From a virus, in IMG/VR virus record IMGVR_UViG_3300010885_072825, positions 64,001-128,000 of that record: 64,000 bases of DNA. The stretch is one strand, 5' to 3'. Under the pieces are notes generated by a model. It was not told the DNA's origin, made no database searches, and saw only the letters and a program-made list of their open reading frames with translations. This document shows, one piece after another, positions 6,338 through 43,641 of the stretch; the first letter of the stretch is position 1; every line of letters begins with the position of its first letter. A program made the position numbers and the translations under genes.

Positions 6338-6345
6338 TATTTATA
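6338..6345 (-). promoter_or_regulatory. T4-type late promoter TATAAATA 4 nt before the terL ATG, inside a hairpin
   Basis: Minus strand reads CCCTTATAAATAAGGG-ATG. Confidence 0.8.
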
Positions 6346-18277: not shown

Positions 18278-19234
18278 TTAAACTCCCCAAGCATTCCCTT
18301 TGACATTGACATGATATCTAGGACTCATTCTGTAACCATATTTAAGGCACAAATCATATACTATTTCTTGATAGTGAATATATTCTTCATAACAACCACC
18401 AACTGGCATTAGAAATACTTGTTCTACTCCCAGTTCTTTTACAGCTTGTTCAACTTCGGGAATGTGTTCTTCACCAGCAACCACAAATTTCAAATACATG
18501 ATCCGAGCTTTGACCTGTTCAAAGCTGCGAATGACTTCGGGGCGAATGGCCTGACTCCACAATTCTCCACTAGCAGACAGTTTGGGACTAACTGAAAAAG
18601 TTACTGTAATTGGTCTGGGTGGTTCTGGAGTTGTGTATATCTCTCGGTATCCACCCAGACCATCGTCTTCTAATTCACCCTCTTCCCAAGCCCATATTTC
18701 ATGTGTTTTATTACGATCGTTAAAATAGTCAACCAATGCTTTGCTGAGTGGTTGCGTGCCATTAGTTTCAAAAGTGAGATTCGTTAATTCCGGCAATAGA
18801 TCCAAAAGTTTGGGATATGCACGTTGCCAGCCCAACAGTGGTTCGCCGCCTGTAATCACTAGATGAAACTCTTTGCCATTTTCTGTGTGAAATTTGCCAT
18901 CTGGCAACAAAGCTCGCATTTCATTTACCAAGTCTTCTTCTGTTTTCATTGGTGATAGATGTTTGAATTCAGTGTAGATAGCCGCATAGCTATCACACCC
19001 TGTTCTTACCAGTGGTAAATCGTCAAATTTTTCATAATTATCGATGTTTTTGATTATTTCACCAACTTCAGTTGTCTGTTCTCCCTTAGGTAACCCAAAT
19101 GATTTACATCGAAAATTACACCCGAATGTACGTAGAAAAATACTGGGTTGTCCAAGCCAATAGCCTTCTCCTTGATGAGCTGGTCCAAAAAGTTCTGATA
19201 CTTTAATCATAATTACCTCTGATTCTATCTTCAA
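18278..19234 (-). CDS. queE: 7-carboxy-7-deazaguanine synthase-like radical SAM enzyme
   Basis: ELF...QGEG, FLRTFGCNFRC...GCDS, ITGGEP, FETNGT, SVSPKL, LMPVG, SPRYH. Confidence 0.85.
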   Translation of the reverse strand: MKIESEVIMIKVSELFGPAHQGEGYWLGQPSIFLRTFGCNFRCKSFGLPKGEQTTEVGEIIKNIDNYEKFDDLPLVRTGCDSYAAIYTEFKHLSPMKTEEDLVNEMRALLPDGKFHTENGKEFHLVITGGEPLLGWQRAYPKLLDLLPELTNLTFETNGTQPLSKALVDYFNDRNKTHEIWAWEEGELEDDGLGGYREIYTTPEPPRPITVTFSVSPKLSASGELWSQAIRPEVIRSFEQVKARIMYLKFVVAGEEHIPEVEQAVKELGVEQVFLMPVGGCYEEYIHYQEIVYDLCLKYGYRMSPRYHVNVKGNAWGV

Positions 19235-27638: not shown

Positions 27639-28892
27639 TCAATCAATTTCTCGAACATCCCATGCTTGCGGACCCCAGCTGGTATATTTTACTTGAACTT
27701 GATTTTGATGTCGAAGACGACCAACAAAATCTTTAGATCTAGCTTCCACAACTTCATTTGATCCAGGATGGATATATGAAATATTATCAAACTGATCCAA
27801 ACATGTGACGGCCAATTGAGGAGTGTTCAGTTTGATTTTGAACACTGTGGCCATTGCCTGAGATCGTTCCCAATCTGATTGAATGTTCTTATAGAGCTCG
27901 TTAAGATCCAGAGGCGCGAATCGCAAAGTATCTTGCCATGGATTGGGTTTGTTGGTTTGATCAACTACTTGAGAAAAATCCATTTTCAAATTTTCCCATT
28001 TTAGTGGACCTGCTCCATGGCGAGTGGCATAGCAGCGGGTCACATATACAGGGGTGATTTCTTTTACTCCCAGTTCAGCCGCAGTATGAATTGCACTGAG
28101 CAGTCCCGTAATCGACCTAGTCACATGGGGAAATTCACCCATAAGTTCATCCAACCCCAGACCCTGTGCACCTTCAAAAATCACAGGTGTATCTTCCCAA
28201 ATGTTGAAAGGGTTGAAATTGGGTTGAATCACTTTGAGAGTTTCTAGCATACGTTTGATCATGGCCCATTCTGAATCAACATTCATCAATGGTACAAATT
28301 TTTGATATTCGGGGAGATGTTCAAATGGTTCTAGTAGTGGTTTGTAATATTCCTGTACTCGCAAAAGACTGAGAGAACTAGTACCATAACAACAATCATT
28401 GAGAACCAACTGCGCTGATGGATCTTGATTTCTAGTTACCGTAGCATTCACACCCAAACCACAGGACCCATGCTTGCTAGTACCTCGACTAATTTCTTGC
28501 AATTGATTATATGCAATATCCCAAATTGTGGTGATGATTGCGCTGGGATGAGCCCAAAAATTATAATGATAGGGACCATCAACATGTTGGATTCCCAATG
28601 CTTGTAATTGATCCCATTCTTTTAGAAATGCAAATGGATTGACGATAAAATTACTAGATAGATAAGTTCTAGATCCAGCAAGTGTTCCAGATCCAAAGTG
28701 ACCAAACACATGACGATGTTGATCTGTTACCACAGTGTGTCCAGCTTGAGCTCCGCCATTAACACGAGCAACTAGTGTATTTTTTGGACCTAACTTTCTA
28801 GCTAGATAATCAGTAATCAAGCCTTTGCCTTCATCACCATATCCAGCACCAATAACAGCATAGTTCGTCATGACGTCACCTTGAAGTTTCAT
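27639..28892 (-). CDS. purA: Divergent adenylosuccinate synthetase-like protein
   Basis: GAGYGDEGKG, NGGAQAGHT, HGSCGLG, FEGAQG..LD, FPHVTRS, YATRHGAGP. Confidence 0.8.
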   Translation of the reverse strand: MKLQGDVMTNYAVIGAGYGDEGKGLITDYLARKLGPKNTLVARVNGGAQAGHTVVTDQHRHVFGHFGSGTLAGSRTYLSSNFIVNPFAFLKEWDQLQALGIQHVDGPYHYNFWAHPSAIITTIWDIAYNQLQEISRGTSKHGSCGLGVNATVTRNQDPSAQLVLNDCCYGTSSLSLLRVQEYYKPLLEPFEHLPEYQKFVPLMNVDSEWAMIKRMLETLKVIQPNFNPFNIWEDTPVIFEGAQGLGLDELMGEFPHVTRSITGLLSAIHTAAELGVKEITPVYVTRCYATRHGAGPLKWENLKMDFSQVVDQTNKPNPWQDTLRFAPLDLNELYKNIQSDWERSQAMATVFKIKLNTPQLAVTCLDQFDNISYIHPGSNEVVEARSKDFVGRLRHQNQVQVKYTSWGPQAWDVREID

Positions 28893-38053: not shown

Positions 38054-39475
38054 TCAATTTTCATCATAAACTTTTGCAAGTTCTTTCATTTTAGTGGGAT
38101 TACGAAGCTTTGTCAATGCCTTGCTTTCAATCTGTCGAACTCGTTCTCGAGTCACATTAAACTCACGACCAATTTCTTCTAATGTGTATTCATTCTTTGC
38201 ACCAATTCCGAACCGCATTCGAATCACACGTTCTTCCTTGCTATTCAAACTGTTGAGTACTCTGCCAACCGCTCGGCTTTTGTCAACTGCATTCAGATTC
38301 TCAATTACGTTTACGCTGGATTCATCTGAAATCAGTTCACCAATTGTATTTTCAGAATCTTGACTTGCGGGACGATCCAAACTGGTTGGTTCAATAGCTG
38401 CTCGCTGTGCTTGTATAATTTTCTCCACTGATAGATTGATTAGTGGTGACAGCTCTTCCGCAGATGGTTCTCGACCAGTCTTATAAACCCAGTCACGAGT
38501 TGCCAATTTAATTTTTTTAATATTATCTAGAATGTGTCCAGGAATTCTGATGGTCTTGGTTTGTTCACCCAGTGCTTTCATAATGCCCTGTCGGATCCAC
38601 CAGGTTGCGTATGTGGAAAAACGATAACCCAATTGCCACTTATATCTTTCAACAGCTTTGATGAGTCCAATATTACCTTCTTGAATTAGATCAAGCAGAA
38701 TCTGTTGATTATTGTGACTGTATTTCTTAGCAACACTGACCACTAGACGCAAGTTACTGACCACCATCTTTTGAATGGCCGCATCCTTCAAACTGTTCTG
38801 CGTCTTAAGTGTTCTGACAATTGACCGAAGTTCTTCACTGGTTAAACCGGTTTGATTGACCAGGGTTTCAATTTCAGCAACTATACCAGCAATTGATTCA
38901 GACTGTTCTGTTTGGAATTTTTGCCAGGACAGTGGCAATTGCTTGCTACCAATTTGAGTTTCTGAACCAATGTATTCTTGAATAAAATCAGTTCTAGTGA
39001 TTCCGGATTTTTGAGCCAGTCGAAGCATCGCACCATCACAGGCCGTGATTTTTTGATTCAATCGAGTAATTTGATCAATTAGAGTTGCAATACTAGCTGA
39101 ATTAATTGGCAGATCATTAAATTTCTGTACCAGTTCAGCCTTCTTAATCGTATCTAAAAGATATTCTTTTGCCAGAGATTTTACAATTGCTAGATTTTCC
39201 GGAGTGATATTTGCATCTTCCAGTTCTAGATCAAACACATCAGTTGGTAAAACAGTTTGTTTTTCAATACCATCAATCCAACCAATTATGGTATTAACTG
39301 TGAGTGGGATTGCAAAAAGGGTATCGATAATGATACGCTTACTGTTTTCAATTTGTTGGCTGATTTCAATCTCTTGCTTGTGATTGATCAGCGGCGCCTT
39401 CTTCACATCATTAAGATAAAGTTTAATCGGGTCTTGATACCCCGTTGGGTCTTTTTCTTTGGTCACTGTCTTCAC
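38054..39475 (-). CDS. rpoD: RpoD-like primary sigma factor lacking region 1.1
   Basis: Region 1.2 DPIKLYL, non-essential region, region 2 NLRLVVSVAKKY/DLIQEGNIGLIKAV/FSTYATWWIRQ, region 4 TLEEIG..FNVTRERVRQIE. Confidence 0.93.
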   Translation of the reverse strand: MKTVTKEKDPTGYQDPIKLYLNDVKKAPLINHKQEIEISQQIENSKRIIIDTLFAIPLTVNTIIGWIDGIEKQTVLPTDVFDLELEDANITPENLAIVKSLAKEYLLDTIKKAELVQKFNDLPINSASIATLIDQITRLNQKITACDGAMLRLAQKSGITRTDFIQEYIGSETQIGSKQLPLSWQKFQTEQSESIAGIVAEIETLVNQTGLTSEELRSIVRTLKTQNSLKDAAIQKMVVSNLRLVVSVAKKYSHNNQQILLDLIQEGNIGLIKAVERYKWQLGYRFSTYATWWIRQGIMKALGEQTKTIRIPGHILDNIKKIKLATRDWVYKTGREPSAEELSPLINLSVEKIIQAQRAAIEPTSLDRPASQDSENTIGELISDESSVNVIENLNAVDKSRAVGRVLNSLNSKEERVIRMRFGIGAKNEYTLEEIGREFNVTRERVRQIESKALTKLRNPTKMKELAKVYDEN

Positions 39476-39911: not shown

Positions 39912-40336
39912 TGTTTGGCCGACACGGTTCTTAAATCATTAAAAGCGGAAATTGAAGCCGCGTTTGCTAGATCACTTGCTGCTTTATTGTCTGTTTTAGA
40001 AACAGAATTAATAGGCAGTTTGTTGATTTTGGTAGTTGTGGTTTTTACTTCAGCTTCAGCCAATTGCTGTTGGTTTTGTAAATCAGTTAACATGCTAGCT
40101 TGTTGAGCTGCTTGCTGTTGTAATGCTGTTATGGTCTTAGTTTGCAAATCGAAACCGGTTTGTAGTTTGGTCTGGTTTTGATTTAGAACTGCTAGGTTAT
40201 GATCTGTTATTTTATAGTAAATGAAACCAGCAACACCCATTCCCAACAATAAGGTAGATAATACCACAATTATTGTATTTTGCGCATTACTAAAAAAAGA
40301 AGTTAAAAATGCCATGTGAGCCTGTTTTTGAATCAA
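39908..40336 (-). CDS. Inner-membrane spanin-like protein
   Basis: N-terminal TM helix plus Gln-rich coiled coil; late promoter at 40340-40347. Confidence 0.72.
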   Translation of the reverse strand: MIQKQAHMAFLTSFFSNAQNTIIVVLSTLLLGMGVAGFIYYKITDHNLAVLNQNQTKLQTGFDLQTKTITALQQQAAQQASMLTDLQNQQQLAEAEVKTTTTKINKLPINSVSKTDNKAASDLANAASISAFNDLRTVSAKQ

Positions 40337-40355
40337 TTATATTTATGATCAAAAA

Positions 40356-40601
40356 TCAATTCAATTTTTTTATTTCACGATCATAGATATGATTATAAAG
40401 TTCATTGACTTCCAACATTCTAAAATAAGTCTCGGTTGGTAACCCTATTTTCATTTCCAAAAATGATTCCCGGGAAATTTCAGTCACAAGAAATTCACTC
40501 CCACAACTACCATCAACTTCAACAATTGCACCATGGCTTATTCCATTATCGGTAAGATGATCTGAAATCAATTCTTCATCGACATAGATTACTCGAACCA
40601 T
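40356..40601 (-). CDS. Hypothetical protein
   Basis: 81 aa, abutting the upstream gene. Confidence 0.5.
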   Translation of the reverse strand: MVRVIYVDEELISDHLTDNGISHGAIVEVDGSCGSEFLVTEISRESFLEMKIGLPTETYFRMLEVNELYNHIYDREIKKLN

Positions 40602-40880
40602 TTAAATAGTGTCTTTTTTCAAGGAATCTTTAATAGTCGCGCTTTTTATATGCGCCGTGTTATCTTCATCAATTGTCAAAACTGCTTTTTTAAATTTAAT
40701 AGACCCTTTGGTATGTGAATTATTTGGTGATTCTTTGGTAGACCAACTCATATTTGATTCTATGTGATTGACATAAAATGTTCGTCCAGCCGTTTTTGCT
40801 ACCCAGGGCGGAACTGTTTGATCTTCCAAATGTTTCTTATTGAAATGAATCACTAGATCTCGGCAATATATCTTTTCCAT
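40602..40880 (-). CDS. Small hypothetical phage protein
   Basis: HFNKKHLED...PWV.K..G.TFYVNH...WSTKE.P...HTKGSIK; SD AAGGAG; TATAAATA at 40989-40996. Confidence 0.65.
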   Translation of the reverse strand: MEKIYCRDLVIHFNKKHLEDQTVPPWVAKTAGRTFYVNHIESNMSWSTKESPNNSHTKGSIKFKKAVLTIDEDNTAHIKSATIKDSLKKDTI

Positions 40881-41111
40881 ATTTCTCTCCTTAATTGGTT
40901 GATTGGTCAGACAGAAGGAATCTCAGTCTGAAAACAAACTGAGATTCCAAATTTCTATTTTTTTGAAAGATTATCTAACGCATGTTTATATTTATAGTTG
41001 ATTTTTTATTCGAAATCAAATCAATCTGCTCGACTATGTGATTCTGCTCGGATACCATGCTGAATAAGAACTGCCACATAAGCGTAGGTAGCAAGTTCCT
41101 TGAGTGTCATA

Positions 41112-41210
41112 GTACCTCAAATCATATAATATCTTAAACTAGTTTAAGATATCACTACTATTATGATTGAGTCTTTGTTTTTTTCCAAGAGAACTATTTG
41201 TGCCCTTGTG
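41112..41210 (-). ncRNA. Candidate omegaRNA scaffold overlapping the tnpB 3' end
   Basis: CAAGGGCAC..GTTCTCTTG hairpin, then long stem CTCAATCATA...ATATCTTAAAC-TA-GTTTAAGATAT...TATGATTTGAG ending just before the junction. Confidence 0.5.
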
Positions 41211-42344
41211 TGTTTTCTTAGCTAGAGCGCCCAGACCTCTAGCCAAGATATTACGTGCGGCATTAGTATCTGCGTCGCTGTCGTAACCACAATGTACACA
41301 CACGAAATATTCGCCCCTGCGACTATCTGCATGTACATGCCCACATTCGCTACACATCTGAGATGTATAGGCAGGATTTATCCGAAATACATGAACGTCA
41401 TGTTCAGCAGCTAACTCCTCAATCCGGTTGTTGATATAACTTAAACACCATGCATGGTTTTTATATCCCCAACTTTTACCTGTTTTCATACCAGTTAAAT
41501 TTTCGGTAATCAAATAGTCTATTGCATCAAAATTAATGTCGCGTTTCAATGAATAATTAATTTCATTACGTAAAAAATTTCTAGCTCGTTTTTGTGCTTT
41601 ACTACCATGTTTCTTTGAAGCAACAATATCCATGATTTGATCAATTGGCAATCCCCTTTTGTGTGTGGTTTCCATATGCCCATCATCTCTAGCAATTAAC
41701 TTTTTACGACCAATATCAATTGCTTGAATCTTAGTTATGTCATTGCTCAAATTGACTGTTTTGTGAAAATAAAATCCCAATGACCCGTCATTATTCACTC
41801 GTAACGAATTGGTCTTTAAAACAAATCCCCTGTCAATTAATTTTTTCATATGACGCGTTAACACAAGCGGAATATAAAAATTACCCCGCATGAAGGAAGA
41901 TATTTTAATCCAATACTCACAAATCTTAGTATCTTTTGATTTTTCTATTGAAATAAATCTTGAATCCAGTTCAATATTAACTGAGTTAATATCAACTTGC
42001 AATAGACCCGAATTATATTTTGTCAATATCTCTCGTTGATATTTTTTTAAATTCTCAGAATTCCTAGCTAATTTGACTTTAACTGTAATAGATCTAGCTA
42101 TTGCTACTGCTTGTTTGGCTAAAACTTGACTCATCCGAGCAGGAAATGGCAATGCTGCAACTATTTCTTTGGGAAGAAAGTTTGGTATTTGATCAAAATC
42201 ATATATCAACTTGTTGACTAATTTATGTAATTCAAATTTATATAAGTCGAAAGGAGTATTCAAACGTGTTTGTTTCCCTGTATTCGCCAATACGGGATTA
42301 TAATTACTAATGCGGATATTGTTTTTATTGGGTTTCTTCGCCAT
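41139..42344 (-). CDS. tnpB: TnpB RNA-guided endonuclease
   Basis: RuvC-I AIDIG, RuvC-II ITENL, PAYTSQMCSECG...CVHCG zinc finger, RuvC-III DADTNAARNI; late promoter TATAAATA at 42431-42438. Confidence 0.92.
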   Translation of the reverse strand: MAKKPNKNNIRISNYNPVLANTGKQTRLNTPFDLYKFELHKLVNKLIYDFDQIPNFLPKEIVAALPFPARMSQVLAKQAVAIARSITVKVKLARNSENLKKYQREILTKYNSGLLQVDINSVNIELDSRFISIEKSKDTKICEYWIKISSFMRGNFYIPLVLTRHMKKLIDRGFVLKTNSLRVNNDGSLGFYFHKTVNLSNDITKIQAIDIGRKKLIARDDGHMETTHKRGLPIDQIMDIVASKKHGSKAQKRARNFLRNEINYSLKRDINFDAIDYLITENLTGMKTGKSWGYKNHAWCLSYINNRIEELAAEHDVHVFRINPAYTSQMCSECGHVHADSRRGEYFVCVHCGYDSDADTNAARNILARGLGALAKKTHKGTNSSLGKKQRLNHNSSDILN

Positions 42345-42820
42345 TAGTCAATTCCAAAATTAGTTTTTCTTATACAACCAATTACAAAAAGATGTTTATA
42401 ATTCATCAAAAACTTTATGTTTCCTACTTGTATTTATACTAGAAATATAGTATTGTTTGCAATATGAATGAAAATAAATAATACTTTGTGTCATTGATCC
42501 ACCTGGATTCCAAACTCGGACGCCGCCTTGATAACTGTCTTTGCGAGCAATTCCAGCTGCCACCAATTCCTTGGCAAACTTGGAATTCGCCGGGCGAATA
42601 ATTGCCCAGGCAAAACCACAATAAAATGGTTCAGGATTCTTGGCGAGATAGTCGGCTTATGCCTTTTGTGCAGCAGTCCAAGCCATATTGTGAATTTCAA
42701 TTGCAGTAGGCATCTTGTTGCTCCAACAAATTATTCCTTATCATATAATTCAAAAACCTGTTTGTCAACAGTTGATTTATTTCTCAATCCAATAAATAAT
42801 TGGGAAAATAGAGATCACCC

Positions 42821-43384
42821 ATGTCAACCACACTTCTTATGAACGCTGACTTTTCTCCACTCAGCATAATTCCACTCAGCACAGTATCTTGGAGAGAAGG
42901 CATCAAAATAAGCTTTCTTGATCATGCCAAGACACTTGAGTACTATGACGATTGGTTCGTGCATAGCCCAAGTCGAACCATGCAAGTTCCCAGTGTGATG
43001 ATCAGCCGGACTTTCATCAAGAAGAAGAATTTCATCAGATTCACTCGCCAAAATCTTTTGATACGAGATAATTTCTCTTGCCAGTATTGTGGCACGATTT
43101 TGAACAACAATACACTAACTGTAGATCACGTTATTCCTCGTGTCCGAGGAGGTAAAACTCGCTGGGATAATATTGTCTGTGCATGTAAAAAATGTAACTC
43201 TGAAAAGGGACACAAATCAGTGATGAAACCCATGCAGGCTCCATTCAAACCCAGCTATTATGATTTAGTGGGGAATGCACAGAAGTTACCAATCGTGGTT
43301 CCTGATGCCAAATGGATCCCCTATTTGAATTGGGATCCTGAAATAATCACGGTTAGACCACCAAACAAAAATAATTTCAATTAA
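42821..43384 (+). CDS. HNH endonuclease (McrA-like)
   Basis: RDNFSCQYCG, TVDHVIPR.RGG, WDNIVCACKKCNSEKG; late promoter at 42791-42798. Confidence 0.88.
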   Translation: MSTTLLMNADFSPLSIIPLSTVSWREGIKISFLDHAKTLEYYDDWFVHSPSRTMQVPSVMISRTFIKKKNFIRFTRQNLLIRDNFSCQYCGTILNNNTLTVDHVIPRVRGGKTRWDNIVCACKKCNSEKGHKSVMKPMQAPFKPSYYDLVGNAQKLPIVVPDAKWIPYLNWDPEIITVRPPNKNNFN

Positions 43385-43440
43385 ATTATTGACTTGGTCT
43401 AGATCAGTCATAAATAATTTGACTTATTTAAGGAGACTTT

Positions 43441-43641
43441 ATGACTGAACAAAACAATACTGATCACTTGATTACACTTGTTGATCTAAAGAATATCATG
43501 ACTATAATTGATCTCGCTAGTACTCGAGGTGCATTCAAAGCTCTTGAACTTCAGCCCGTTGGTGAATTGTATAATAAAATAGACCGTTTTATACAAATCG
43601 CTAATTCTGCCAGTGAATCAAAATCTGAAACCACAACCTAA
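43441..43641 (+). CDS. Small hypothetical phage protein
   Basis: IIDLASTRGAFKALEL..VG.LY; SD AAGGAG; CATAAATA at 43409-43416. Confidence 0.65.
   Translation: MTEQNNTDHLITLVDLKNIMTIIDLASTRGAFKALELQPVGELYNKIDRFIQIANSASESKSETTT

Follow-up and report, generated by a model that had tools for sequence, protein, structure and literature searches.

A probable IS607-like TnpB element without its own transposase splits a gene of a large phage and is absent from that gene in close relatives

In a stretch of phage DNA 64,000 nucleotides (nt) long (positions 64,001 to 128,000 of the IMG/VR virus record IMGVR_UViG_3300010885_072825; hereafter, the window), a small gene is interrupted by an insert that carries tnpB, a gene for a transposon-type nuclease. 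What kind of element is this, how did it reach its site, and could its nuclease act on copies of the gene that lack the insert? An earlier note, made from the sequence alone, had read it as a TnpB element wired to the phage late promoter and as a candidate for homing without a transposase. We find that it is very probably an IS607-like TnpB element, and not one of the IS200/IS605 type. The locus as a whole is likely to be explained by a transposon of this kind that lacks the transposase gene tnpA and uses RNA-guided cutting of the empty allele. That the element also homes between co-infecting phages is a tentative suggestion, rather short of probable. The principal features are as follows.

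42483-42713, minus strand: 5′ half of the split gene, 77 codons, matching phrog_22149, with TAA at 42659-42657.
41021-41110, minus strand: 3′ half of the split gene, 29 codons plus stop, recognized by alignment with homologues.
41109-42480, minus strand: the inserted element, 1372 nt including the terminal TAT, probably non-autonomous and IS607-like, delimited by homology with a second copy (locus L015) and by contigs from metagenome runs X3 and X4.
41139-42344, minus strand: tnpB, 401 amino acids plus stop, with D210, E281, and D357/D359 and a CxxC...CxxC zinc ribbon at residues 331-352.
42481-42486, minus strand: AAGTAT, host-derived target motif and putative target-adjacent motif (TAM), whose last three letters (TAT) are common to the right end of the element.

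The interrupted gene has 106 codons on the minus strand. It starts at the ATG at 42713 and is split after codon 77: The 5′ half ends at 42483, and the other 29 codons and the stop lie at 41110-41021. TAT stands at both junctions (42483-42481 and 41111-41109), and the insert measures 1369 nt, or 1372 nt counting one TAT (42480-41109). The 5′ half matches phrog_22149 (profile positions 32-92 of 121, E = 1.9e-06), and a scan of viral contigs found eight loci with relatives of it, 35-71% identical over the best aligned segment. At all eight the frame continues across the break point, and the end resembles the 3′ half in the window. When six distinct contiguous homologues were aligned together with the two window halves, each half entered on its own, column 109 held the last residue of the 5′ half and column 110 the first of the 3′ half, with no gap and no overlap. 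Because the two halves meet at adjacent columns on six contiguous homologues, the split is, by this alignment, genuine and far beyond chance. An in-frame TAA in the 5′ half (42659-42657, read as X) stands opposite Glu in five of the six. The host gene thus carries two lesions, the insert and a nonsense codon in place of a conserved Glu. The gene matched no Pfam family and its product is a hypothetical protein; its nearest Atlas clusters consist of viral hypothetical proteins only.

The uninterrupted gene exists naturally in a relative ∼96% identical to the window. We compared contigs of four public freshwater metagenome runs (X1 to X4, of which X3 and X4 are two samples of one study) with positions 40700-43000. 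Contigs from X3 and X4 (5017 and 2158 nt) join 41108 to 42481 and skip exactly 1372 nt, with three ambiguous letters. They differ from the window flanks at 11 of 271 and 21 of 520 letters (32/791), differences within ∼30 nt of the joint being unlisted. Filled and empty alleles, the pair that a homing element should show, therefore both occur among relatives. In X1, contigs span the left junction of the window without difference, and others exit at 41109 and 42486 into the flanks of L015; in X2, one contig spans the right junction without difference. The window may itself have been assembled from X1 or X2. In X3 and X4, further element ends lead into yet other flanks, at 41108 and 42485. Near-identical copies thus lie at several sites, which means that the element transposes, presumably by a TnpA acting in trans; homing alone cannot do so. 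A search of annotated phage records with 40300-43500 (megablast and blastn) gave no match, and an exact 23-mer of the left flank had 0 matches in viral contigs.

The ends of the element can be defined from pairs of close copies. The copy at L015, at a different site on another contig, is 97.0% identical to the window copy over 1378 nt; the homology spans 42486 to 41109 and halts there on both sides. AAGTAT precedes the element at both sites, and in the window these letters are codons of the host gene, so that AAGTAT belongs to the target and not to the element. A further pair, L017 and L018, is 98.6% identical with different flanks, and here the homology runs from AGTAT to ACTAT. Across the family, ACTAT closes all 10 aligned right ends, and GTAT closes 11 of 12 left flanks, in 8 of the 12 with the boundary set by eye from a conserved left-end box beside TAT and not from an empty site. 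This count takes L014 and L025 as one locus and omits L013 and L019 (left ends unplaced) and L016 and L023 (without upstream DNA). The exception is L014, with CCTAT as its left flank. At this locus (L014 = L025, 2980-4269), whose right end could not be placed, a 37% identical TnpB relative lies directly before a clamp-loader gene, the start codon of which overlaps the tnpB stop. The box itself is the following feature.

42464-42474, minus strand: conserved left-end box TTTTCATTCAT, found by eye, common to autonomous relatives; candidate TnpA binding site.

By eye, the TTTTCATTCAT box is present in the window copy and in L015, L012, L017, L020, and L011, with variants in L018, L021, L014, and L022; from its position and conservation it is a candidate binding site for TnpA. 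The element lacks terminal inverted repeats and has one short motif repeated at its two junctions. By analogy with known serine recombinases, the shared TAT is the matching core motif that transposition by such enzymes leaves at both junctions. Right end and target differ at the fourth letter from the junction, C against G (ACTAT vs. GTAT). The letters past the right end show no conservation among relatives, as expected for a guide. Neither sibling copies nor end fragments were found beyond chance in the available phage genome, and the flanks of L015 have no match there.

To which family does the element belong? With the single protein as query we found no close TnpB relatives in IMG/VR; a family alignment found four loci there, and with 20 loci from metagenome contigs these supplied the DNA around TnpB relatives. 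Three loci (L011, L022, and L026) have an open reading frame (ORF) whose end lies immediately ahead of the tnpB start or overlaps it. In L011 this upstream ORF contains HTH_17 and Resolvase domains and scores 179.5 bits (cut-off 110) against NF033518, the NCBIfam equivalog for the IS607 family transposase; the tnpA genes of L011 and L022 both match the transposase family phrog_6620. All three transposase-bearing relatives thus have a serine recombinase instead of the Y1 TnpA that marks the IS200/IS605 family. The window copy encodes no serine TnpA of its own and, since it lacks a second ORF while L011 and L022 encode one, is a non-autonomous derivative. Such loss has happened more than once: L020 retains a remnant of the start of tnpA only (by eye), and L012, with a tnpB 90% identical in DNA to that of L011, has no tnpA. 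Judged by these relatives, the window element is a non-autonomous member of a phage-borne IS607-like lineage, one that has retained both of its ends, the region upstream of tnpB, tnpB itself, and a structured 3′ region.

Canonical IS607 elements have a GG core and a TAM of TGGG, AGGAG, or GAGGG (PMC10690162, PMC13565253), and their recombination uses matching dinucleotide motifs (PMC10711439). The flanks in the present lineage read RGTAT in place of GG integration sites and a G-rich TAM, and given its TAT core the lineage would therefore be a variant with a core of the A/T type. All relatives with sequence context lie in phage contigs, beside genes for DNA ligase, clamp loader, DNA polymerase, ribonucleotide reductase, baseplate, and deoxynucleoside monophosphate kinase. 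A scan of the genomes of 185,579 prokaryote species with two peptide patterns only gave 14 pattern matches, none of which was confirmed.

Is the nuclease intact? The sole long ORF of the insert (42344-41139, 401 amino acids) matches Pfam PF07282 (Cas12f1-like TNB) with E = 5.5e-19, and a protein search with it returned 87 matches at E ≤ 1e-5: one 98% identical, one 80%, and 25 at 46-52%. In an alignment with the 27 relatives at these identities, D210 and E281 never vary, and D357 and D359 are conserved in at least 90%. The zinc-ribbon cysteines C331, C334, C349, and C352 are also present and conserved, between RuvC-II and RuvC-III. From motif position rather than superposition, D210, E281, and D357/D359 are the putative catalytic residues. 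A model built on the relative alignment has a mean predicted local distance difference test score (pLDDT) of 81.6. Full-length Foldseek comparison matched it to AsCas12f (6.5e-17), ISFba1 TnpB (4.2e-12), and ISDra2 TnpB (5.4e-11 and 1.7e-06), with template modelling (TM) scores of ∼0.5, as well as to mimivirus Fanzor2 (1.1e-10); the overall fold, an N-terminal WED/REC part plus RuvC, is thus that of TnpB and Cas12f.

Between the window and L015, the tnpB genes differ by 24 synonymous and 10 non-synonymous codons (counts rather than a formal ratio of substitution rates), and in the 5′ non-coding part they differ at 2 letters of 142; conservation is stronger in the non-coding ends than in the coding part. 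Such figures fit the maintenance of a working gene with working ends, and many independent relatives without tnpA have likewise retained tnpB. Taken on its sequence the window TnpB is divergent but apparently intact, and we consider it on balance probable that it is an active RNA-guided nuclease.

The element also appears to hold an RNA partner for this nuclease, with its guide beyond the right end.

41109-41300, minus strand: predicted omegaRNA scaffold overlapping the 3′ end of tnpB, from fold, covariation, and the ACTAT end; its 5′ limit is a guess.
41089-41108, minus strand: putative guide template and target DNA, from its position past the right end and the known TnpB mechanism; a length of 20 nt is assumed.

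None of 200 shuffled versions folds as well as the final 222 nt of the element (z = −4.5), and a terminal hairpin at 41171-41116 ends 7 nt before the junction. RNAalifold on 10 relatives predicts 34 pairs, 13 of them with compensatory changes, a count confounded by the fact that the region is also coding. All nine relatives folded singly have a hairpin across the stop codon that ends 6-14 nt before ACTAT. The stem sequences vary between relatives, and the hairpin of the window copy is ∼50 nt longer than in more distant ones. In IS607 elements the guide is taken from DNA past the right end, with the TAM at the left flank (PMC10711439, PMC10690162); this layout fits a guide read from 41108 downward and a TAM in the AAGTAT present at both copies.

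Much of what the earlier note had described therefore stands. The coordinates that it had given are correct, the TAT-flanked insert (77 + 29 codons), the in-frame TAA, and the long 3′ stem-loop are all there, and the insert holds tnpB alone, with its RuvC acidic residues, as it had said. The contiguous homologues and the relatives with an empty site that it had called for exist, and its layout of guide and TAM agrees with ours. The search that it had proposed for a trans-acting transposase or sibling copies drew a blank in the ∼35% of the genome available. On family a correction is needed: The 3-nt repeat that it had flagged as atypical of IS200/IS605 elements is real and corresponds to the TAT core of IS607 chemistry, and the serine tnpA genes of L011, L022, and L026 speak against the IS200/IS605 type.

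These parts suggest a sequence of steps. A serine TnpA supplied in trans would have inserted the element, recombining its joined ends with a target having a TAT core. The tnpB transcript would be processed to an omegaRNA with a 3′ guide copied from 41108 downward, and TnpB with this RNA would cut the RGTAT-adjacent match to the guide, which is the element-free allele, either left after excision or brought in by a co-infecting relative. The filled allele would be spared, its right end reading ACTAT, with C where the target has G. The break would then be repaired from a filled copy by the UvsX/UvsY/gp32 system, so that the element is kept or copied (homing); neighboring markers, the TAA among them, could be dragged along during repair.

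The phage encodes proteins that could serve this last step. It is a large, uncultured freshwater myovirus, known from metagenomes, with distant T4-like genes, which include those for a gp32-like single-stranded DNA-binding protein, RNA ligases, large terminase, tail sheath, thymidylate synthase, nicotinamide phosphoribosyltransferase, topoisomerase II, ribonucleotide reductase, UvsX-like and UvsY-like proteins, and the major head protein. The recombination genes of UvsX type to which the earlier note had appealed are thus present, and with UvsX-like, UvsY-like, and gp32-like genes a recombination-dependent repair of breaks is plausible. As a proposal, the cutting of the empty allele followed by such repair is plausible too.

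How the element is transcribed bears on one part of the earlier note, which had wired it to the phage late promoter through the motif TATAAATA.

42431-42438, minus strand: TATAAATA, promoter-like, 87 nt upstream of the tnpB start, with TTGCAA 18 nt upstream of it.
42740-42768, minus strand: sigma-70-type promoter-like site of the split gene (TTGACA, 17 nt, TATGAT), agreeing at 11 of 12 consensus positions; consensus match only.
40917-40948, minus strand: hairpin resembling an intrinsic terminator, 3′ of the split gene, with 14 pairs, 6 of them G-C; consensus match only.

The motif does lie where the note had placed it, and it is conserved in L015, where the −35-like hexamer is TCGCAA. Its number in the window is that expected (5 observed vs. 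4.75). Genome-wide there are 12 sites, 9 of them in the 6.3% of the sequence that is non-coding (vs. ∼2.6 expected from composition). A hexamer with at least 4 of 6 letters of the −35 consensus occurs 16-18 nt upstream of 7 of the 12 sites, compared with 17% of control A/T 8-mers. For TTGACA matched at 5 or 6 of 6 letters exactly 17 nt upstream, the figures are 3 of 12 and 3%. Examples of TATAAATA at exactly this distance from TTGACA or TTGACG are those at G000:C1:12467, 22921, and 121287. At two other sites, TATAAATA precedes a predicted start codon by 2-5 nt, in one case that of the large terminase gene (window 6338-6345). We found no T4-type late sigma factor among 142 ORFs scanned. There is a sigma-70-family protein of 473 amino acids (38057-39475, minus strand; phrog_351, 1.3e-79), encoded ∼1.7 kb downstream of the element.

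From these counts, TATAAATA in this phage mostly looks like the −10 element of sigma-70-type promoters, and a late promoter of the T4 type is unsupported: The motif is unenriched in the window, has sigma-70-type spacing, and no late sigma factor turned up in the ORFs scanned. Read-through from the promoter-like site at 42740-42768 would also transcribe the element. In run X1, one contig swaps 53 nt of the 5′ untranslated region of the element (42357-42411) for 15 other letters, between TATAAATA and the tnpB start. Directly beside the promoter of the split gene, and divergent from it, is a free-standing HNH endonuclease gene (42821-43384, plus strand; PF14279, 7.7e-17; phrog_16726, 1.6e-39), so that two selfish nuclease genes adjoin here.

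Several points weigh against a tnpA-less IS607-like transposon with a working nuclease. The TnpB is very divergent, matching NCBIfam models over residues 249-389 only and reaching none of their cut-offs (guided_TnpB, 62.9 bits, cut-off 100; IS200_TnpB, 30.8, cut-off 425; IS607_TnpB, 27.4, cut-off 350). By its flanks, the lineage does not use the GG core and G-rich TAM of canonical IS607; the putative TAM RGTAT is read from flanks only, most of them with the left boundaries placed by eye, as noted above. No transposase of the Y1 (PF01797) or resolvase type (PF00239) was found in the 139,590 bases of phage sequence searched, ∼35% of the genome according to CheckV. Rfam gave no significant family over 40500-43200, only seven matches at chance level, and we found no RNA sequencing runs that contain the stretch. 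Of the unlisted differences, up to three may fall where the empty allele would match the guide. One plain insertion explains the filled/empty polymorphism equally well, and, given the nonsense codon in the host gene, the locus may be decaying and the element a mere passenger.

This last possibility deserves weighing in full: A TnpA acting in trans would have dropped the element into a dispensable gene, where it is now inert or decaying and its TnpB of no use. The doubly broken host gene, the failure to find tnpA or a sibling copy in the part of the genome searched, and the sufficiency of one insertion event for the polymorphism would all be accounted for. Neglect of this kind is hard to square with an intact tnpB ORF that keeps its catalytic residues, with the 24 synonymous as against 10 non-synonymous differences and the stronger conservation of the non-coding ends, or with the retention of tnpB in many independent tnpA-less relatives, and we regard it as unlikely. 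A reading along the lines of the earlier note, as an IS200/IS605-type TnpB spread purely by homing and expressed from a T4-type late promoter, is improbable to a greater degree. The TnpB, the geometry of guide and TAM, and the empty allele on which it builds are real, no transposase was found in the part of the genome searched, and TATAAATA is present and conserved in L015, with ATAAATA-like motifs upstream in most relatives (by eye). But the relatives carry a serine TnpA of IS607 type and not Y1, near-identical copies at several unrelated sites require transposition, and the counts, spacing, and sigma factors set out above do not favor a late promoter.

Two further readings keep the anatomy and change its purpose. 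TnpB and its RNA might serve as a weapon that cuts element-free competitors in co-infection and makes them yield less, while the element itself is hardly copied, if at all. The anatomy would be the same as for homing, phage homing endonucleases that kill competitors have been described (PMC13565253), and HNH and other homing endonuclease genes abound in this genome. Yet flanks ∼96% identical are enough for repair from the filled copy, and the recombination genes are there, which makes a weapon without copying very improbable. The element might otherwise be an IStron, an intron-like element that splices from the mRNA and leaves the host gene working. IStrons of IS607 type exist (PMC10690162, PMC4227781), and the insert lies in sense orientation in the window. 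We can give this almost no credence: Neither a group I intron nor another ribozyme family appears at E ≤ 10 in 40500-43200, only 136 nt precede tnpB and 30 nt follow it, the L015 copy is antisense to the ORF that it splits, and the host gene has a nonsense codon besides. A tnpA-less IS607-like transposon with RNA-guided cutting of the empty allele is the account that we carry forward.

The element is one of several selfish elements in this phage, whose genome holds several HNH or homing endonuclease genes. Outside the window is a second, unrelated TnpB gene for 412 amino acids (G000:C1:9350-10585 = L035:9350-10585, minus strand), which lies between genes and has no transposase close by. Its type is the canonical IS200/IS605 one (guided_TnpB, 284.6 bits, cut-off 100; phrog_506, 2.7e-108), and the phage thus carries two different TnpB lineages. 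Between this gene and one for a Ro/TROVE-like RNA-binding protein (L035:7651-9141; phrog_850, 2.3e-141) are two similar long stem-loops in tandem (L035:9160-9340, minus strand), with a sub-threshold Rfam match to wcaG RNA (28 bits vs. 42). They might mark where the second element ends, or else form a small RNA that works with the Ro-like protein. At G000:C1:15769-18264 (L035), two ORFs match the two halves of the dehydrogenase family phrog_9582 (profile positions 262-341 and 7-183), with an HNH endonuclease ORF (phrog_559) between them: a further gene interrupted by a selfish element, which may be an intron or intein. At G000:C1:61881-64843 (L038:4881-7843), the UvsX-like ORF of 502 amino acids matches recombinases at residues 211-393 only, and the UvsY-like gene is separated from it by a homing endonuclease gene (phrog_314). 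There are also matches to a PurZ-type adenylosuccinate synthetase family (window 27642-28892; phrog_1211, 4e-55), a QueE-like family (window 18281-19234; phrog_2076), and a QueD-like family (G000:C1:2288-2785; phrog_2389). The phage may have DNA with modified bases, which would bear on any nuclease cutting it, TnpB included.

How does the element compare with known systems? TnpB is an RNA-guided retention nuclease for both IS605 and IS607, cutting the vacated site (PMC10055086, PMC10690162). The closest likeness is to the IS607 family (IS607, ISXfa1, and the Clostridium botulinum IStron): The autonomous relatives have a TnpA with helix-turn-helix and resolvase domains directly upstream of tnpB or overlapping it, and there are no terminal inverted repeats but the same short motif at both junctions (PMC10711439, PMC10690162). 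It differs in its TAT core within GTAT/ACTAT and its A/T-rich putative TAM, RGTAT (PMC10690162, PMC13565253), and the window copy lacks tnpA, falls below the curated TnpB cut-offs, and has no Rfam match. The virulent T4-like Campylobacter phages CP220 and CPt10 carry ISCaje1-3, described in 2010, which are TnpB-only elements of the IS200/IS605 type, isoforms of ISCaje1 being 97% identical at different sites in CP220 and CPt10 (PMC2853527). These resemble the present element as TnpB-only insertions in a virulent myovirus, with copies ∼97% identical at different sites and a fixed short target. In contrast, they have the target ATTTT and a Y1 TnpA in ISCaje4 (PMC2853527), whereas the kin of the window element are serine-recombinase elements and its empty allele is documented.

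TnpB-driven spread of IS605 among plasmids without TnpA has been described as a "gene drive" (PMC11870625) and treated as non-restorative homing (PMC13565253). There, as we propose here, cutting of the element-free copy by the nuclease and its repair spread the element with no need of TnpA; the plasmid case is experimental, and ours is known from sequence. The setting of co-infection, recombination-dependent repair, and co-conversion of flanks is that of the T4-like homing endonuclease genes (Seg, Mob, I-TevI), which, however, recognize their targets by protein and not by RNA and do not transpose. A last comparison is with Fanzor2 and IS607-like elements of giant eukaryotic viruses, which are also virus-borne, linked to an IS607-type serine recombinase, and similar in fold. 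The Glu ∼50 residues before the zinc finger in the window TnpB (E281, C331) is in the canonical prokaryotic position, unlike that in Fanzor (PMC13565253), and the host here is a tailed phage.

Homing between co-infecting phages has been listed as a theoretical type (PMC13565253, Table 1), and the idea is a reasonable one, already in print as a concept, and not a new principle. Within our coverage, which excludes subscription journals, we found no paper on TnpB homing in phages, nor one on IS607-like elements whose core is TAT. The novelty lies in a phage-borne variant of the IS607-like kind whose ends are defined and whose TAM can be inferred, together with a filled and an empty allele found in nature. 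The locus is thereby a natural test case, with a predicted guide and TAM and with filled and empty alleles in ∼96% identical phages of similar habitat, to which come the recombination genes of the phage and autonomous relatives able to supply the transposase.

The IS607 family is widened to a non-GG core, a small divergent TnpB, and a putative A/T-rich TAM, which is of some interest for compact genome editors. Beyond this single locus, there may be a whole lineage resident in large virulent phages, with a TAT core and an RGTAT TAM, whose tnpA-less copies persist through TnpB/omegaRNA homing between co-infecting phages; we offer this as a conjecture, somewhat more doubtful than homing itself. 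If it is true, the TAT core and RGTAT TAM would suit A/T-rich phage DNA, the single-letter difference between ACTAT and GTAT would be a switch between self and non-self, and phage populations would carry a programmable counterpart of the T4 homing endonucleases, jumping to new sites when TnpA is present.

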